From Escherichia coli (GTDB taxonomy: Bacteria; Pseudomonadota; Gammaproteobacteria; Enterobacterales; Enterobacteriaceae), in assembly GCF_002854065.1 (NCBI RefSeq), contig NZ_CP024147.1: a DNA stretch of 64,000 bases; one strand, written 5' to 3'. The position numbers were made by a program, and so were the translations under genes. Below, one piece after another: positions 1-62,507 of this stretch (position 1 is the first letter of the stretch; every line of letters begins with the position of its first letter). The notes below the pieces were generated by a model that was not told the origin of the DNA, did no database searches, and saw only the letters and a program-made list of their open reading frames with translations.

Positions 1-163
1 AACCAGACCGGGAGGAATGTTAGCCCCGCGCCGTCGTTAACCAAATCCCACGCCAGGGGAACAGACTGGCGGACCTTCAAAGACGGTCGCACACCGTGTT
101 TGACATAATTTATTGTTTTTTGCTTGCTCTTATTATTGCAGCCGTTAGGGTAATGACTCCAAC

Positions 164-667
164 TTATTGATAGTGTTTTATGTTCAGATAATGCCCGATG
201 ACTTTGTCATGCAGCTCCACCGATTTTGAGAACGACAGCGACTTCCGTCCCAGCCGTGCCAGGTGCTGCCTCAGATTCAGGTTATGCCGCTCAATTCGCT
301 GCGTATATCGCTTGCTGATTACGTGCAGCTTTCCCTTCAGGCGGGATTCATACAGCGGCCAGCCATCCGTCATCCATATCACCACGTCAAAGGGTGACAG
401 CAGGCTCATAAGACGCCCCAGCGTCGCCATAGTGCGTTCACCGAATACGTGCGCAACAACCGTCTTCCGGAGACTGTCATACGCGTAAAACAGCCAGCGC
501 TGGCGCGATTTAGCCCCGACGTATCCCCACTGTTCGTCCATTTCCGCGCAGACGATGACGTCACTGCCCGGCTGTATGCGCGAGGTTACCGACTGCGGCC
601 TGAGTTTTTTAAATGGCGGAAAATCGTGTTGAGGCCAACGCCCATAATGCGGGCGGTTGCCCGGCAT
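164..667 (-). CDS. insB: IS1 InsB (C-terminal part of InsAB' transposase, made by -1 frameshift)
   Basis: 167-aa ORF overlapping insA 3' end in the -1 frame; A6C slippery motif present. Confidence 0.9.
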
Positions 668-861
668 CCAACGCCATTCATGGCCATATCAATGATTTTC
701 TGGTGCGTACCGGGTTGAGAAGCGGTGTAAGTGAACTGCAGTTGCCATGTTTTACGGCAGTGAGAGCAGAGATAGCGCTGATGTCCGGCAGTGCTTTTGC
801 CGTTACGCACCACCCCGTCAGTAGCTGAACAGGAGGGACAGCTGATAGAAACAGAAGCCAC
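586..861 (-). CDS. insA: IS1 InsA (transposition repressor / N-terminal part of InsAB' transposase)
   Basis: 91-aa [25 protein letters not shown]... recognised as IS1 InsA. Confidence 0.93.
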
Positions 862-988
862 TGGAGCACCTCAAAAACACCATCATACACTAAATCAGTA
901 AGTTGGCAGCATCACCAGCTTTACTAATATATTGCAGCTGGACCGCTTACCCTGAATATTCAGGGTAAGCGTGAGAGTTAAAAAAGAA

Positions 989-3268
989 TTACAGCGGTTG
1001 GGTTTGCGCTTCAACCACGGCCAGCGCCACCATGTTGACGATACGACGTACCGATGCGATCGGCGTTAACACGTGAACCGGTTTCGCCACGCCCATCAGC
1101 ACCGGACCGACAGTCACACCTTCCGAGCTGGAAACGCGCAGTAAGTTGTAACTAATGCGGGCAGCTTCCATGTTTGGCATTACCAGAATATTGGCAGAAC
1201 CTTTCAAAGGGCTGTCCGGCATACGGTCGTTGCGAATCGCTTCCACCAGCGCTGCATCGCCGTGCATTTCACCATCAATCATCAGTTCTGGCGCACGTTC
1301 CCTGACCAGTTCCAGCGCCTGACGCATTTTGCTCGACGACGGACAGTCAGAAGAACCAAAGTTGGAGTGCGACAACAGAGCAACGCGCGGCTCAATACCA
1401 AAACGACGGACAGTTTCTGCCGCCATCAAGGTGATCTCCGCCAGCTCTTCTGCGTCTGGTTCGTCATTGACGTAGGTATCGGCAATAAAGGTGTTACCAC
1501 TCGGCAGCAGCAGCGCGTTCATTGCACCTGCGGTGTGAACGCCATCGCGATAACCAAAGACATTTTTCACCACGCTAAAATGTTCATGATAATCACCCAC
1601 CGTACCGCAAATCATTGCATCGGCTTCGCCACGCTGAACCATGATCGCGCCGATCACTGTCGGGTTACTGATCAACGCCCGCTGCGCCTGTTCCTGAGTG
1701 ACGCCGCGACGCTTCATGATCTGGAAGTATTCGGTCCAGTACTCTTTAAAGCGCGGATCGGATTCGTTATTGACGATCTCAAAATCAACGCCCGCTTTGA
1801 TCTGCAAGCCCAGTTTCTGAATGCGCATTTCGATCACGTTCGGACGACCGATAAGGATCGGTTTCGCCAGTCCCAGCGTTACCAGTTCCTGAGTGGCATG
1901 TAGAACGCGCGCCTCTTCCCCTTCCGGCAGAACTACGCGCTTCGGCGCTTTGCGAGCCTGGGAGAAAATCGGCTTCATAAACAGGTTGGTTTTGTAAACG
2001 AACTCAGTCAGCTTGTCGATGTAGACGTCGAAATCAGCAATCGGACGCGTCGCCACGCCCGACTCCATCGCCGCTTTCGCGACCGCAGGAGCGATCTTAA
2101 CGATCAAGCGCGGATCAAACGGTTTTGGAATGATGTATTCCGGACCAAAGCTCAGATCCTGATCGCCATACGCTGAAGCCACCACTTCGCTCTGTTCCGC
2201 ATGGGCCAGTTCTGCAATCGCGCGTACCGCCGCCAGTTTCATCTCTTCGTTGATGGCGGTTGCGCCAACGTCCAGCGCGCCACGGAAGATGAACGGGAAG
2301 CAAAGGACGTTGTTGACCTGGTTTGGATAGTCAGAACGACCGGTGCAGATGATGGCATCCGGACGCACTTCTTTCGCCAGCGGCGGCAGAATTTCCGGTT
2401 CCGGGTTCGCCAGCGCCAGGATCATTGGCGCTCGAGCCATTTTCTTCACCATTTCCTGGGTCAGCACTTTCGGGCCGGAACAGCCGAGGAAAATATCCGC
2501 GCCTTCAATCACATCATCGAGGGTACGTTTGCCGTCATCCACTACCGCATATGCGGCTTTGGTTTCCGCCATGTTTGGCTCACGGCCCTGATAGATAACG
2601 CCTTTTGAATCGCAAACCACGATGTTATGTTTTTGCAGACCCAGCGCGACCAGCAGGTTCATACAGGCGATTGCTGCAGCACCCGCGCCGGAAACCACCA
2701 TACGCACGTCAGAGATGTTTTTCTCCACCACGCGCAAGCCGTTGAGGATGGCGGCAGTGCTGATGATTGCCGTGCCGTGCTGATCGTCGTGGAATACCGG
2801 AATATTCATCCGCTCGCGCAGTTTCTGTTCAATATAGAAACATTCTGGCGCTTTAATGTCTTCGAGGTTGATTCCGCCGAAGGTCGGTTCGAGCGCAGCG
2901 ACGACTTCAATAAATTTGTCCGGGTCGAGTTCATCAACTTCAATGTCAAATACATCAATCCCGGCGAATTTCTTAAACAGAACGCCCTTGCCTTCCATCA
3001 CCGGTTTGCCTGCCAGCGCGCCAATGTTGCCTAACCCCAGCACCGCCGTACCGTTAGAGATCACCGCCACCAGGTTACCGCGCGCGGTATATTTGTAGGC
3101 TTTTAACGGGTCTTTTTCGATTTCAAGACAAGGTGCGGCAACGCCTGGTGAGTAGGCCAGCGCCAGATCGCGCTGCGTTGCCAGAGGCTTGGTTGGAGAA
3201 ACCTGGATTTTCCCTGGAACTGGAAATTCATGGAAATCAAGTGCACTTTGTTTTAACTGGTCATCCAT
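989..3268 (-). CDS. maeB: NADP-dependent malic enzyme (with phosphotransacetylase-like C-terminal domain)
   Basis: 759-aa [26 protein letters not shown]... recognised as MaeB; length matches. Confidence 0.95.
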
Positions 3269-26690: not shown

Positions 26691-28708
26691 TGGATGCCCT
26701 GCAATTATTAACCTGGTCGCTGATCCTCTATCTGTTTGCCAGTCTGGCTTCGCTGTTTTTACTCGGTCTGGACAGACTGGCTATTAAGCTTTCCGGCATC
26801 ACATCGCTGGTGGGCGGCGTGATTGGCATTATCAGCGGAATTACGCAATTACATGCAGGCGTAACTTTAGTCGCCCGTTTTGCCACCCCTTTTGACTTTG
26901 CCGATTTAACCCTGCGAATGGATAGCCTCTCGGCATTTATGGTGCTGGTTATCTCCTTGCTGGTGGTGGTTTGTTCGCTCTATTCATTGACTTATATGCG
27001 CGAATACGAGGGCAAAGGCGCGGCGGCGATGGGCTTCTTTATGAATATTTTCATCGCATCGATGGTTGCCCTGCTGGTGATGGACAACGCTTTTTGGTTC
27101 ATCGTGCTGTTTGAAATGATGTCACTGTCTTCCTGGTTTCTGGTCATTGCCAGGCAGGATAAAAGGTCGATCAACGCTGGCATGCTCTACTTTTTTATCG
27201 CCCACGCCGGATCGGTGCTGATAATGATCGCCTTCTTGCTGATGGGGCGCGAAAGCGGCAGCCTCGATTTTGCCAGTTTCCGCACGCTTTCACTTTCTCC
27301 GGGGCTGGCGTCGGCGGTGTTCCTGCTGGCCTTTTTCGGTTTTGGCGCGAAAGCCGGGATGATGCCGTTGCACAGCTGGTTGCCGCGCGCTCACCCTGCC
27401 GCACCATCGCACGCTTCGGCGTTGATGTCTGGCGTAATGGTCAAAATCGGTATTTTCGGCATCCTGAAAGTGGCGATGGATCTGCTGGCGCAAACGGGTT
27501 TGCCGCTGTGGTGGGGCATTCTGGTGATGGCGATCGGCGCAATCTCCGCGCTCCTGGGCGTGCTGTATGCGCTGGCGGAACAGGATATCAAACGGCTGCT
27601 GGCCTGGAGTACCGTCGAAAACGTCGGCATTATTTTGCTGGCAGTCGGTGTGGCGATGGTCGGTCTGTCACTGCACGACCCGCTGCTCACCGTGGTTGGA
27701 CTGCTCGGCGCACTGTTTCATCTGCTCAACCATGCGCTGTTCAAAGGGCTGCTATTTCTCGGCGCGGGCGCGATTATTTCGCGTTTGCATACCCACGACA
27801 TGGAAAAAATGGGGGCACTGGCGAAACGGATGCCGTGGACAGCCGCAGCATGCCTGATTGGTTGCCTCGCGATATCAGCCATTCCTCCGCTGAATGGTTT
27901 TATCAGCGAATGGTACACCTGGCAGTCGCTGTTCTCACTAAGTCGTGTGGAAGCCGTAGCGCTACAACTTGCGGGTCCTATTGCTATGGTAATGCTGGCA
28001 GTCACTGGTGGGCTGGCAGTAATGTGCTTCGTCAAAATGTACGGTATTACTTTCTGTGGTGCGCCGCGCAGTACACACGCTGAAGAGGCACAGGAAGTGC
28101 CAAATACGATGATCGTCGCCATGCTACTGCTCGCGGCACTCTGCGTATTAATTGCGCTTAGTGCCAGTTGGCTGGCACCGAAGATAATGCATATTGCCCA
28201 TGCGTTTACCAATACCCCTCCCGTCACTGTCGCCAGCGGAATAGCACTTGTACCCGGCACGTTTCATACACAGGTCACCCCCTCATTACTGTTGCTGTTA
28301 CTACTGGCGATGCCTTTGCTGCCTGGCCTTTACTGGCTGTGGTGTCGTTCGCGCCGCGCAGCGTTTCGTCGCACAGGAGATGCCTGGGCATGCGGCTACG
28401 GCTGGGAAAATGCGATGGCCCCGTCAGGCAATGGCGTGATGCAGCCGCTGCGTGTGGTCTTTTCTGCGCTATTTCGTCTACGACAACAGCTCGACCCTAC
28501 GCTGAGGCTAAATAAAGGCCTTGCGCACGTCACCGCCAGGGCTCAGAGCACAGAACCCTTCTGGGATGAGCGGGTGATCCGCCCCATCGTGAGCGCCACC
28601 CAACGGCTGGCCAAAGAAATACAGCATCTGCAAAGCGGCGACTTTCGTCTCTATTGCCTGTATGTGGTTGCCGCACTGGTTGTGCTGCTAATCGCTATTG
28701 CCGTCTAA
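26690..28708 (+). CDS. hyfB: Hydrogenase-4 membrane subunit HyfB (NuoL/MrpA antiporter-like)
   Basis: 672-aa polytopic membrane ORF; start overlaps hyfA stop (taATGg). Confidence 0.93.
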   Translation: MDALQLLTWSLILYLFASLASLFLLGLDRLAIKLSGITSLVGGVIGIISGITQLHAGVTLVARFATPFDFADLTLRMDSLSAFMVLVISLLVVVCSLYSLTYMREYEGKGAAAMGFFMNIFIASMVALLVMDNAFWFIVLFEMMSLSSWFLVIARQDKRSINAGMLYFFIAHAGSVLIMIAFLLMGRESGSLDFASFRTLSLSPGLASAVFLLAFFGFGAKAGMMPLHSWLPRAHPAAPSHASALMSGVMVKIGIFGILKVAMDLLAQTGLPLWWGILVMAIGAISALLGVLYALAEQDIKRLLAWSTVENVGIILLAVGVAMVGLSLHDPLLTVVGLLGALFHLLNHALFKGLLFLGAGAIISRLHTHDMEKMGALAKRMPWTAAACLIGCLAISAIPPLNGFISEWYTWQSLFSLSRVEAVALQLAGPIAMVMLAVTGGLAVMCFVKMYGITFCGAPRSTHAEEAQEVPNTMIVAMLLLAALCVLIALSASWLAPKIMHIAHAFTNTPPVTVASGIALVPGTFHTQVTPSLLLLLLLAMPLLPGLYWLWCRSRRAAFRRTGDAWACGYGWENAMAPSGNGVMQPLRVVFSALFRLRQQLDPTLRLNKGLAHVTARAQSTEPFWDERVIRPIVSATQRLAKEIQHLQSGDFRLYCLYVVAALVVLLIAIAV

Positions 28709-28718
28709 GGAAATCACC

Positions 28719-29666
28719 ATGAGACAAACTCTTTGCGACGGATATCTGGTCATTCTTGCGTTAGCACAGGCCGTGATTCTGCTGATGCTAACCCCACTTT
28801 TTACGGGTATTTCCCGGCAGATACGCGCGCGAATGCACTCCCGCCGCGGACCGGGGATCTGGCAGGATTATCGCGATATCCACAAACTGTTTAAACGCCA
28901 GGAAGTTGCGCCGACATCTTCAGGTCTGATGTTCCGCCTGATGCCGTGGGTATTAATCAGCAGCATGCTGGTGCTGGCGATGGCCCTACCACTATTTATT
29001 ACCGTTTCCCCTTTTGCGGGCGGCGGCGATCTGATCACCCTTATCTATCTTCTTGCCCTGTTTCGTTTTTTCTTTGCTCTTTCAGGGCTGGATACCGGAA
29101 GCCCGTTTGCGGGAGTCGGTGCCAGTCGCGAGTTGACGCTCGGCATTCTGGTCGAACCCATGCTCATTCTCTCACTGCTGGTATTGGCGCTGATAGCGGA
29201 TTCCACGCATATCGAGATGATCAGCAATACGCTGGCGATGGGCTGGAACTCGCCGCTAACCACCGTACTGGCGTTACTGGCCTGTGGTTTTGCCTGCTTC
29301 ATTGAGATGGGAAAAATTCCCTTTGATGTTGCTGAAGCAGAACAGGAATTACAGGAAGGCCCGCTGACAGAATATTCCGGTGCCGGGCTGGCGCTGGCGA
29401 AATGGGGGCTGGGGCTGAAACAGGTCGTGATGGCAGCACTGTTTGTGGCCCTGTTTCTGCCCTTTGAGCGCGCGCAAGAACTTTCTCTCGCCTGCCTGCT
29501 GACTTCACTTGTCGTTACGCTGCTCAAGGTTTTGCTGATTTTTGTACTGGCCTCAATCGCAGAAAACACGCTGGCACGCGGGCGTTTTTTACTCATTCAC
29601 CATGTGACCTGGCTTGGCTTCAGCCTTGCTGCGCTTGCATGGGTCTTCTGGTTAACCGGTCTGTAA
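28719..29666 (+). CDS. hyfC: Hydrogenase-4 membrane subunit HyfC (NuoH-like)
   Basis: Start set at MRQTLCDGYLVILALAQ (315 aa). Confidence 0.92.
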   Translation: MRQTLCDGYLVILALAQAVILLMLTPLFTGISRQIRARMHSRRGPGIWQDYRDIHKLFKRQEVAPTSSGLMFRLMPWVLISSMLVLAMALPLFITVSPFAGGGDLITLIYLLALFRFFFALSGLDTGSPFAGVGASRELTLGILVEPMLILSLLVLALIADSTHIEMISNTLAMGWNSPLTTVLALLACGFACFIEMGKIPFDVAEAEQELQEGPLTEYSGAGLALAKWGLGLKQVVMAALFVALFLPFERAQELSLACLLTSLVVTLLKVLLIFVLASIAENTLARGRFLLIHHVTWLGFSLAALAWVFWLTGL

Positions 29667-29682
29667 GGAGCACTGACGGAAT

Positions 29683-31122
29683 ATGGAAAATCTTGCTCTG
29701 ACGACGTTAATGCTGCCTTTTATCGGCGCACTGGTCGTTTCGTTTTCGCCACAACGTCGGGCCGCCGAATGGGGGGTTTTGTTCGCCGCGCTGACCACGC
29801 TGTGCATGTTGTCGCTGATCTCCGCGTTTTATCAGGCCGATAAAGTTGCCGTCACGTTGACGTTGGTCAACGTGGGGGATGTGGCATTGTTTGGCCTGGT
29901 CATTGATCGCGTGAGTACGCTGATTCTGTTTGTGGTGGTGTTTCTCGGTTTGCTGGTCACGATCTACTCCACGGGTTATCTGACGGATAAAAATCGCGAA
30001 CACCCGCATAACGGCACGAATCGTTATTACGCATTTTTGCTGTTGTTTATCGGCGCGATGGCGGGACTGGTACTCTCCTCGACGCTGCTCGGTCAGTTGT
30101 TGTTTTTTGAAATTACGGGCGGCTGCTCCTGGGCGTTGATCAGTTATTACCAGAGCGATAAAGCACAGCGTTCAGCACTAAAAGCGTTACTTATCACTCA
30201 TATCGGCTCGTTGGGGTTGTATCTTGCCGCCGCCACGCTGTTTTTGCAGACCGAAACGTTTGCGCTTAGCGCGATGAGCGAGTTACACGGCGACGCACGT
30301 TATCTGGTTTATGGCGGCATCCTGTTTTCCGCGTGGGGGAAATCGGCCCAGCTACCGATGCAAGCGTGGCTACCGGACGCAATGGAAGCGCCAACACCGA
30401 TCAGCGCCTATCTCCACGCCGCATCGATGGTGAAAGTGGGCGTTTACATTTTTGCCCGCGCCATTATCGACGGCGGCAATATCCCGCATGTGATTGGCGG
30501 CGTTGGCATGGTCATGGCGCTGGTCACCATTCTTTATGGCTTCCTGATGTATTTGCCACAGCAGGATATGAAGCGGTTGCTGGCCTGGTCGACCATCACT
30601 CAACTTGGCTGGATGTTCTTCGGCTTGTCGCTCTCCATCTTCGGCTCGCGGCTGGCGCTGGAGGGCAGCATCGCCTACATCGTCAACCACGCGTTCGCTA
30701 AAAGCCTGTTTTTCCTTGTAGCAGGTGCGCTGAGTTACAGCTGCGGCACGCGCTTGTTGCCGCGTCTGCGTGGCGTATTGCACACCCTGCCGTTGCCAGG
30801 CGTGGGTTTCTGCGTGGCAGCGCTGGCGATTACCGGCGTACCGCCGTTCAACGGCTTCTTCAGTAAATTCCCGCTGTTTGCTGCCGGTTTTGCGTTGTCA
30901 GTGGAGTACTGGATCCTGCTGCCCGCCATGATTCTGCTGATGATTGAATCGGTCGCCAGTTTCGCCTGGTTTATTCGCTGGTTTGGTCGCGTCGTCCCCG
31001 GCAAACCGAGCGAGGCCGTCGCCGATGCCGCACCGCTGCCAGGGTCAATGCGCCTGGTGCTGATTGTACTGATTGTGATGTCGCTGATTTCCAGCGTAAT
31101 CGCCGCGACCTGGTTGCAGTAA
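29683..31122 (+). CDS. hyfD: Hydrogenase-4 membrane subunit HyfD (antiporter-like)
   Basis: 479-aa membrane ORF, NuoM/N-like. Confidence 0.92.
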   Translation: MENLALTTLMLPFIGALVVSFSPQRRAAEWGVLFAALTTLCMLSLISAFYQADKVAVTLTLVNVGDVALFGLVIDRVSTLILFVVVFLGLLVTIYSTGYLTDKNREHPHNGTNRYYAFLLLFIGAMAGLVLSSTLLGQLLFFEITGGCSWALISYYQSDKAQRSALKALLITHIGSLGLYLAAATLFLQTETFALSAMSELHGDARYLVYGGILFSAWGKSAQLPMQAWLPDAMEAPTPISAYLHAASMVKVGVYIFARAIIDGGNIPHVIGGVGMVMALVTILYGFLMYLPQQDMKRLLAWSTITQLGWMFFGLSLSIFGSRLALEGSIAYIVNHAFAKSLFFLVAGALSYSCGTRLLPRLRGVLHTLPLPGVGFCVAALAITGVPPFNGFFSKFPLFAAGFALSVEYWILLPAMILLMIESVASFAWFIRWFGRVVPGKPSEAVADAAPLPGSMRLVLIVLIVMSLISSVIAATWLQ

Positions 31123-31133
31123 GGAGATGATGA

Positions 31134-31784
31134 ATGACCGGTTCTATGATCGTAAATAATCTGGCGGGACTGATGATGCTGACATCGCTGTTTGTGATTA
31201 GCGTCAAAAGCTATCGCCTGTCATGCGGATTTTACGCCTGCCAGTCGCTGGTGCTGGTGTCTATTTTCGCCACTCTCTCGTGCCTGTTCACCGCAGAGCA
31301 ACTGCTGATCTGGTCCGCCAGCGCCTTTATCACCAAAGTGCTGCTGGTACCGTTAATCATGACTTACGCTGCACGAAATATTCCCCAGAACATCCCGGAA
31401 AAAGCGTTATTCGGTCCGGCAATGATGGCACTGCTCGCGGCGTTAATTGTCCTGCTTTGCGCATTTGTCGTTCAGCCCGTGAAGCTACCGATGGCTACCG
31501 GACTGAAACCGGCGCTGGCGGTGGCGTTAGGTCATTTTCTGCTTGGCCTGCTGTGCATTGTTAGCCAGCGCAATATCCTGCGGCAAATTTTTGGTTACTG
31601 CCTGATGGAAAACGGCTCCCATCTGGTGCTGGCGCTTCTAGCCTGGCGTGCACCGGAACTGGTGGAAATTGGTATCGCTACCGACGCCATCTTCGCCGTC
31701 ATTGTGATGGTGTTACTGGCAAGAAAAATATGGCGTACCCACGGCACGCTGGACGTGAACAACTTGACCGCGCTGAAGGGATAA
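31134..31784 (+). CDS. hyfE: Hydrogenase-4 membrane subunit HyfE
   Basis: 216-aa membrane ORF in operon position. Confidence 0.9.
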
Positions 31785-60595: not shown

Positions 60596-62507
60596 TCACT
60601 GGAAACAAGTAACCAGACCAGGTTTATTGGCTAACGTGATACTACAATCCTCTGTGCCAGTGCTCTCGTCCATCCCACACCGTTGAGAGGACAAGTAAGG
60701 GAAACTTGGCGAAGCTGGCCATCCCAGCGAATTAAACACAGCATACAATGTCTCTAACTCATTGTATGTCGGTGCATTTTCTATATTTCCACACTGCTTC
60801 GAGATATCCCATTTGCTGGCATCAGTAATATGCGCAGAAGCCCAGTTTTCGTAGTTAATAATCGGTGAGGATACGGGATTGGCCCCGGACGGTAATTCAG
60901 TTGTCAGTATCGGTCGATGTAATGTTTTTCCATTCACCACTGCCGTGTCTGCCATATGCCCCCAGAAGTGAGCAGAAGATACATTTGGGCTGGTCAATAC
61001 GGTGAAAATAGTGTCCATCATTGCAGTCACTGTTGGGTATTTATCCAGCGTTACCGTCAGCGGCGTTTTATAACCCGGCGTATTGTCCTGACGAACAGTA
61101 AAGTTTGCCGTGCCGTCTGCCCCCGTCACGCCACTGATCTCGTTCCCACTAACCGCTAATAGGGTAGCCGCCCCCGATGATGGCTGGATGGTAATATCAT
61201 CCATAGCCGCCACATCGCCATATAGCGTCGCCCCACTATTACGCGGAGAGGCATCACCACGTCGCAGAGTAAACGCCACATTTGGCACAGGTTTCCCGGC
61301 GCTGTCTTTCACCGTCACGGTGACTGGCATTGCCTCGCCCTTCTTCACTTTCGCCGCCTGAGTGGTGGAGTCAAATGCCGTTGACGTCAGGGTGACGGTA
61401 GAAACCGTTGAGTGAGGGTGCACCAGGCACGCCTGGAAGGCGCGGCTTTTAGATACAGTAACAATTTGACCTGTATTGAAGTCAAATGATTCACAAGAAT
61501 TCGCGCCCGCAGGACAATCTGCATTTGTCCACCACACATAGCTATTCTGTTTCACCGGCCAGCCAATCTCATTGACGATAGAGCCATTCGGATAGCGGTT
61601 GTATAAAGATTGAAGCTCATCCAACGATGGATATCGTGCGCTTTCACAAGGGGTAAGCTCCGGCAAATATCGCTGGGTAATATATGGCGCAGGCCAGCTT
61701 TCATTATTTATATTCACTTTAGTGAGCGAATAACCGCCACCGCTGGTTGCCCCCATTTCGGTCCACAGTTTCATCCGCTCAAACTGCGTTCCGTCTGCTG
61801 AGCTTACCGTTTCTGGCATATGTCCCCAGAAATTGGCTTTGGGCGTATCCGGGCTTGTTACTACGGTATACATCAGGTCGAGATCTGACTTTACCCCTGT
61901 GTCACGTGCAAGCGTCGCCGTAAACGGTGTTACCAGTCCCCAGGTATTATCCTGCGTAGCGGTTAACGTGATGATGCCATTACCGTCCGTAACCCCGTTC
62001 CAACTGGCGTTATCATCTGCAAATTTGTAATTGGCTTGCGCAACCGGCGTCAGGAACTGTAGCAGTAGATCATCTGCTGTCGAGCTTTTGAAATCACTCG
62101 TAGTGCGCACTTGTGCTGTCGCACGCGACAACGTGACGCTTTCATAGGCGGCAGGTCTGCCCGCATCATCCGTGACCTTGATGGTTAACGGTATTGATTC
62201 GCCCTTCTTCGCCCATGCGGTCGGACGGTTGTCGTTGATGCCTGTTTTGTCCGCATTCAGCAACGTAGAGGTCAACTCAATCTTCGTTGCCTCAGTGTGC
62301 GGGGTCAACCAGGCAGAGCATTAAATTGCCCGCCGTCGATGTTGTGCTTTCGTTGCGGATAGCACCGTCCATCAGATTAAGCACCTGGTTATACCATGTT
62401 GAACTTGAAACAGTTTGATCGTACGCCCACCAGTAATTACCTGCGTTAAGAGGCAGCCCCAAATCAGTTTCCAGCGCACCATTTGGATGGTCGTTGTAAA
62501 GCCCCAT
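60596..62507 (-). pseudogene. RatA/RatB-invasin-like repetitive Ig-domain protein, C-terminal part, reading frame broken
   Basis: ORFs 62292-62507 and 60596-62308 share the repeat architecture of the upstream ORF (WGHM motif, LYN...GWP motif, VTVKD..G.P....FTL.RGD Ig-like motif); frames joined only by a 1-nt shift in the G4 run at 62301-62304. Confidence 0.55.

Follow-up and report, generated by a model that had tools for sequence, protein, structure and literature searches.

A complete IS1 without target-site duplication next to maeB marks an approximately 13-kb deletion of a prophage end and twelve eut genes in Escherichia coli

Copies of IS1 are normally bordered by a direct repeat of 9 bp (occasionally 8 bp or longer), and the copy that lies next to the 3' end of maeB in the Escherichia coli DNA studied here is not. 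We asked what this missing target-site duplication means for the order of genes around the element, at the left edge of the 64-kb stretch that was analysed (below, the window). The first-pass annotation had suspected an IS-mediated deletion or recombination between two IS copies, and had warned that bases 1 to 148 might not be the original neighbor of maeB, which normally adjoins the eut operon. Features of the region are collected in Table 1, where coordinates with the prefix L001 refer to the corresponding locus of the IS-free strain 13TMH22.

Table 1. Features at the left edge of the window (positions in the window)
Feature	Position	Strand	Remarks
Prophage gene, 3' end	1..40	+	TAA stop at 38-40; L001:20001-20040, end of BWI85_RS15535 of 13TMH22
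Prophage intergenic DNA to left breakpoint	41..148	+	Collinear with L001:20041-20148; last 9 bp AGCCGTTAG
IS1 (IS1B-like)	149..916	-	768 bp; 767/768 identity to RefSeq-annotated IS1B of CUWW06 and 100416
IRR, insB-end terminal inverted repeat	149..171	+	Adjoins the variable, deletion-side junction
insB reading frame	164..667	-	167-aa ORF, expressed as InsAB'
insA	586..861	-	91 aa, GTG start
A6C (AAAAAAC) -1 frameshift site	604..610	-	Shift gives 232-aa InsAB'
IRL, insA-end terminal inverted repeat	894..916	-	Adjoins the conserved anchor junction; weak IS1 promoter inside
Rest of eutS-maeB spacer	917..988	+	72 bp, starts AGCTTTACT (anchor-side flank); collinear with L001:33176-33247
maeB	989..3268	-	Intact, 759 aa

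The element is an ordinary, IS1B-like IS1, complete and exactly 768 bp long, with its transposase genes on the minus strand. Its IRR-type end (GGTAATGACTCC...; first bases GGTAATGACTCCAACTTATTGATAG) starts at 149 and its IRL-type end (GGTGATGCTGCC... on the reverse strand; last bases the reverse complement of GGTGATGCTGCCAACTTACTGATTTAG) finishes at 916; each end motif has one match in the whole window (0 expected by chance), making this the only IS1 found there by the end-motif scan. Its terminal inverted repeats, of 23 nt, are imperfect (78% complementary). A -1 shift modelled at AAAAAAC gives an InsAB' of 232 aa, the canonical length for the A6C-type organization of IS1 (PMC12428005). Both open reading frames match the NCBIfam profile NF033558, "IS1 family transposase": InsB with 141.9 bits (cut-off, 100) over profile positions 76 to 199, and InsA, as one half of the split protein, with 90 bits over positions 1 to 81; the zinc-binding domain NF050000 was matched in the same profile search. 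Length, 23-nt repeats, insA/insB, A6C site and 232-aa InsAB' are thus those of the known IS1 of E. coli and Shigella (IS1B per RefSeq), in line with the complete IS1 of the first-pass annotation, and the element differs from these in lacking the 9-bp duplication. With inverted repeats, insA, insB, frameshift site and InsAB' all intact, the copy looks functional, judged by its sequence. It departs from the copies of two sister genomes (CUWW06 and 100416, below) by one nonsynonymous change at element nucleotide 325 (window 473), where InsB reads ...AYDSLRK... in the window and ...AYDRLRK... in the sisters (Ser for Arg). An IS1A-type copy (L008) likewise has the A variant at this position.

The 9 bp on either side of the element are AGCCGTTAG on the left and AGCTTTACT on the right (context, ...TGCAGCCGTTAG-IS1-AGCTTTACTAAT...). 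They share their first three bases (AGC), differ at six of nine positions and hold no 8- or 9-bp direct repeat, in keeping with what had been noticed at first reading. Under the same definition of the boundaries, perfect 9-bp duplications were recovered around the IS1 copies that three unrelated E. coli lineages have in this spacer (A30, CAAACCGCT; 504211, CTTTTTTTA; PRO_A-1374, CTTACCCTG), and we therefore attribute the missing duplication to a secondary rearrangement and not to an element foreign to the family.

The two flanks, aligned separately to reference genomes, have different origins and are not contiguous in IS-free relatives. The right one belongs where it stands: bases 917 to 1300 (the 3' end of maeB with the eutS-maeB spacer) were matched in 5,423 of the 5,426 complete E. 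coli genomes. The IS1 ends 72 bp from the maeB stop codon. The left one is prophage interior, so the doubt about bases 1 to 148 was justified. This segment equals L001:20001-20148 (100% of its length, 99.3% identity), inside a CPZ-55-like prophage between eutB and eutA, and was matched in 46 of the 5,426 genomes, always within a prophage. The gene that ends at window position 40 is 2,181 bp long in full and is annotated as a hypothetical protein or, for some genomes, a tape measure protein. In 13TMH22 the prophage has intZ beside eutB and yffS beside eutA; it occupies the CPZ-55 integration site of K-12, and the site between eutA and eutB is a known prophage hot spot (PMC6652756). The window-type prophage shares this site, with intZ toward eutB and yffS toward eutA, with CPZ-55 of K-12; unlike CPZ-55, it is a rarer variant (the 46 genomes above), has a 2.2-kb tape-measure-like gene and, here, has lost its eutA-proximal end.

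In 13TMH22 the two flank points (L001:20148 and L001:33176) are collinear and on the same strand, with eutA to eutS between them, which agrees with the expected neighborhood of maeB and supports the suspected IS-mediated rearrangement. Beyond the left breakpoint 13TMH22 continues with AGTTGGCG..., which is missing from the window. Measured against this strain, which diverges from the window by 1.7% in the maeB region, the missing DNA is L001:20149-33175, or 13,027 bp with about 15 genes: two hypothetical genes and yffS from the 3' part of the prophage, and twelve eut genes (eutA, eutH, eutG, eutJ, eutE, eutN, eutM, eutD [pta], eutT, eutQ, eutP and eutS). The region upstream of eutS, with the main eut promoter, is gone too. 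The IS1 marks where about 13 kb, comprising the end of a prophage and twelve eut genes, was deleted beside maeB. Ethanolamine utilization would have been lost with them, and the lineage probably does not grow on ethanolamine. The window holds 148 bp to the left of the IS1; further left, the sister genomes lead us to expect the remaining prophage and then eutB to eutR.

Two complete genomes, both deposited as E. coli, are near-clonal with the window. In the 15,384 bp that follow the IS1 on its right, 1 SNP separates the window from CUWW06 (wastewater, Thailand) and 6 SNPs separate it from 100416 (stool, Gambia), compared with 1.7% divergence for 13TMH22 over the same stretch. All three isolates share the right junction to the base (...GCATCACC/AGCTTTACT, or ...GCATCACC/AGCTTTACTAAT at greater length), with the IS1 in the same orientation, while each has a left junction of its own: L001:20148 in the window, L001:19951 in CUWW06 (197 bp deeper into the prophage, inside the 2,181-bp gene) and L001:16446 in 100416 (3,702 bp deeper, inside the upstream 543-bp gene). 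The deletions of 13,027, 13,224 and 16,729 bp, respectively, are nested and have one end in common. Leftward, both sisters continue with prophage to intZ and then eutB, eutC, eutL, eutK and eutR. The phylogeny of the three is a star in which every SNP is a singleton, and outgroup polarizing was uninformative; the window's state, the smallest deletion, may or may not precede the two larger ones, and all three may have arisen independently. Whichever state is ancestral, at least three rearrangements have occurred at this end of the IS1.

An element left without duplication is known to arise by two routes, adjacent deletion or recombination between two IS copies (PMC11708052). We consider it probable that the first applies here, that is, an IS1 adjacent deletion by intramolecular transposition anchored in the eutS-maeB spacer. 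An IS1 would first have inserted in the spacer, duplicating AGCTTTACT. Replicative transposition of this copy to a target on the same chromosome would then have produced the adjacent deletion: the DNA from the IS end to the target would be lost as a nonreplicating circle together with one IS copy. The other copy would stay in the chromosome with a single copy of the old duplication on one side and of the new target on the other, which would leave no direct repeat to be seen. In the sister isolates this IS end would have acted once more, extending the deletion further into the prophage. The dependence on transposase is inferred; so is this order, with the spacer insertion first, since no genome in the presumed ancestral state was found: an IS1 with AGCTTTACT on both sides, searched for as a synthetic junction of spacer, AGCTTTACT and IS1 end, is absent from the 5,426 complete E. 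coli genomes, where the full-coverage matches to the query were IS1 copies about 30 bp away. An exact scan of JGI metagenome contigs for the anchor junction gave 0 matches.

Adjacent deletion is favored because one fixed and several variable junctions occur within a clone of less than 0.05% divergence, the classical mark of such deletions and the pattern expected when one IS end acts repeatedly. It is favored, too, because the element has everything that activity would need and IS1 transposes mainly replicatively (PMC12428005). Step-wise growth of IS-adjacent deletions has been observed directly in a long-term evolution experiment (PMC11708052), and the likeness extends to the retained IS, the absent duplication, the fixed junction and the outward movement of the other junction. 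Unlike that laboratory time series, the present isolates are natural ones from different places (Gambian stool, Thai wastewater and the source of the window), and their simple-insertion ancestor was not found among the complete genomes.

RecA-dependent recombination between an IS1 in the spacer (at AGCTTTACT) and another, in direct orientation, in the prophage at L001:20148 (at AGCCGTTAG) is the less likely of the two routes, though it keeps an appreciable chance. It would leave a hybrid IS1 in exactly the observed structure, which is also the product of adjacent deletion; missing duplications usually have one of two causes, of which this is one (PMC11708052), and the many IS1 copies of the lineage (at least 40 pieces) would offer substrates. 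However, the three left junctions would call for three co-oriented IS1 insertions within 3.7 kb of prophage, each of them fresh and each then recombined, against a single step per junction for intramolecular transposition, and among the complete E. coli genomes none was found with an IS1 joined at the left junction of the window (0 records reached 80% coverage). The difference at element position 325 could derive from a second parental copy, but it comes without other IS1A-type variant-specific differences and could just as well be a point mutation; it does not help to decide whether the element is a hybrid.

Two further readings are very improbable, to about the same degree. Since IS copies are classic sites of mis-joins, an assembler could have collapsed a prophage copy and a spacer copy into one and falsely dropped the eut segment between them; yet two independently assembled complete genomes of the clone show the same succession of prophage, IS1 and maeB without eutA-eutS. 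Intramolecular transposition can also yield inversions, and the eut segment might have been inverted or moved to another chromosomal site with no loss; yet both flanks are in reference orientation, one of which an inversion would have flipped. Evidence from the whole genome of CUWW06 speaks against both. A 10,225-bp eutA-eutS query, found essentially whole in one place in 4,575 of the 5,426 complete genomes, has in CUWW06 only an 86-bp match of 90.7% identity elsewhere (1% of the query; the weakest record in the ranking), so in that genome the segment was lost and not moved.

A simple insertion with a duplication eroded by point mutations, or with wrongly placed boundaries, has next to no probability left, despite the common AGC and a 9-mer present on both sides, because the flanks lie 13 kb apart in IS-free genomes, which already refutes it, and mismatch at six of nine positions. 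That 9-mer, TATTGCAGC (134 to 142 and 930 to 938), is the sole exact one common to both flanks and was the only candidate when alternative boundaries were checked for an 8- or 9-bp duplication. Its copies do not adjoin the IS ends (they stand 6 and 13 bp off) and are each native to their own locus in IS-free 13TMH22; because it pre-exists at both loci, the 9-mer is coincidental, and it was rejected as a hidden duplication.

The place where the adjacent deletion is anchored is itself a natural, recurrent IS1 target. A+T content is 72% around the anchor, compared with 47% for the whole region, and 41 of the 5,426 complete genomes have an IS1 in this neighborhood. In the spacer, four or more additional positions of independent insertion were confirmed (L005, L006, L007 and L008). 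The copies in A30, 504211 and PRO_A-1374 are simple insertions at different positions. O177:H21, in turn, has an IS1 without duplication that removed eutS together with the 5' part of eutP and clipped maeB by its last 5 nt; EC12 and EC15, judged by identical match patterns, have the same rearrangement. It is conceivable, though we rate it as rather unlikely, that the window's IS1 is an unusually active "deletion engine" and the spacer an IS1 hot spot, with eut being eroded repeatedly in unrelated E. coli lineages. This reading draws on the three or more rearrangements within a clone of less than 0.05% divergence, the independent eutS/eutP loss of the O177:H21 type and the 41 genomes with IS1 nearby; if it were true, erosion of eut could be favored by selection against ethanolamine catabolism in some niches.

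Under this reading, transcription from maeB could bear on the activity of the element. The IS1 is co-oriented with maeB and lies 72 bp downstream, and between them there is only a hairpin without a U tract, so read-through from maeB could raise insAB' expression. The hairpin is a perfect 13+13 palindrome at 945 to 970, intact in the window, which as RNA has a minimum free energy of -24 kcal/mol (z-score, -4.2) and, having no U tract, was not called an intrinsic terminator; a terminator scan of window positions 1 to 1300 found no canonical terminator. In PRO_A-1374 the IS1 is inserted within this palindrome. A promoter scan of the same 1,300 bases gave 2 promoter-like matches, no more than chance (1.3 expected). 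One, on the minus strand (909 to 882), lies at IRL. The other spans the junction on the plus strand (903 to 930; -35 TTGGCA inside IRL, -10 TAATAT in the flank) and is directed outward, antisense to maeB; such matches are at chance level in the region.

The rearrangement is a standard, textbook IS-mediated deletion at a known prophage-bearing locus and is not new in kind. A literature search for IS1-mediated eut deletion returned nothing specific and no paper on this deletion, and one for strain CUWW06 returned no paper. For annotation, the result means that the gene order at the left edge of the window is not ancestral, that the missing duplication is explained and that most of the eut operon has been lost in this lineage. 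Three near-identical isolates from different places would illustrate cleanly, and in nature, how one anchored IS1 copy gives rise to adjacent deletions step by step; such nested series are usually documented only in laboratory evolution, and no known concept changes.

IS-driven gene loss is known in Shigella and enteroinvasive E. coli, and the first-pass annotation had called a high IS1 load Shigella-like. The load of this lineage is indeed high: CUWW06 and 100416 each had at least 40 matching pieces to an IS1-containing query, compared with a median of 11 places per genome. The loss of a catabolic operon through IS is a further likeness. The comparison does not extend to the identity of the strains, as the nearest relatives of the window, unlike Shigella and enteroinvasive E. 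coli, were deposited as E. coli.

Elsewhere in the window, the hyf operon is intact (28630 to 31368; compared with L004:13152-13961). In CUWW06 an IS26 replaces approximately 2.7 kb of hyf (hyfC, hyfD and the 5' part of hyfE), which is a second, independent IS-associated deletion in the same clone. Two lesions interrupt a giant adhesin gene on the minus strand of the window (60596 to 64000; compared with L004:43190-49609), whose product has 2,139 aa in CUWW06: a deletion of 835 bp at about 62544 to 62550, at a short CCTGAG microhomology, and one additional G within the G-run at 62304. Together they alter the length by 834 bp, which keeps the frame overall; the 240 nt separating them are read out of frame and contain stops at 62509, 62374 and 62323; the gene is either a real pseudogene or the product of a homopolymer sequencing error.
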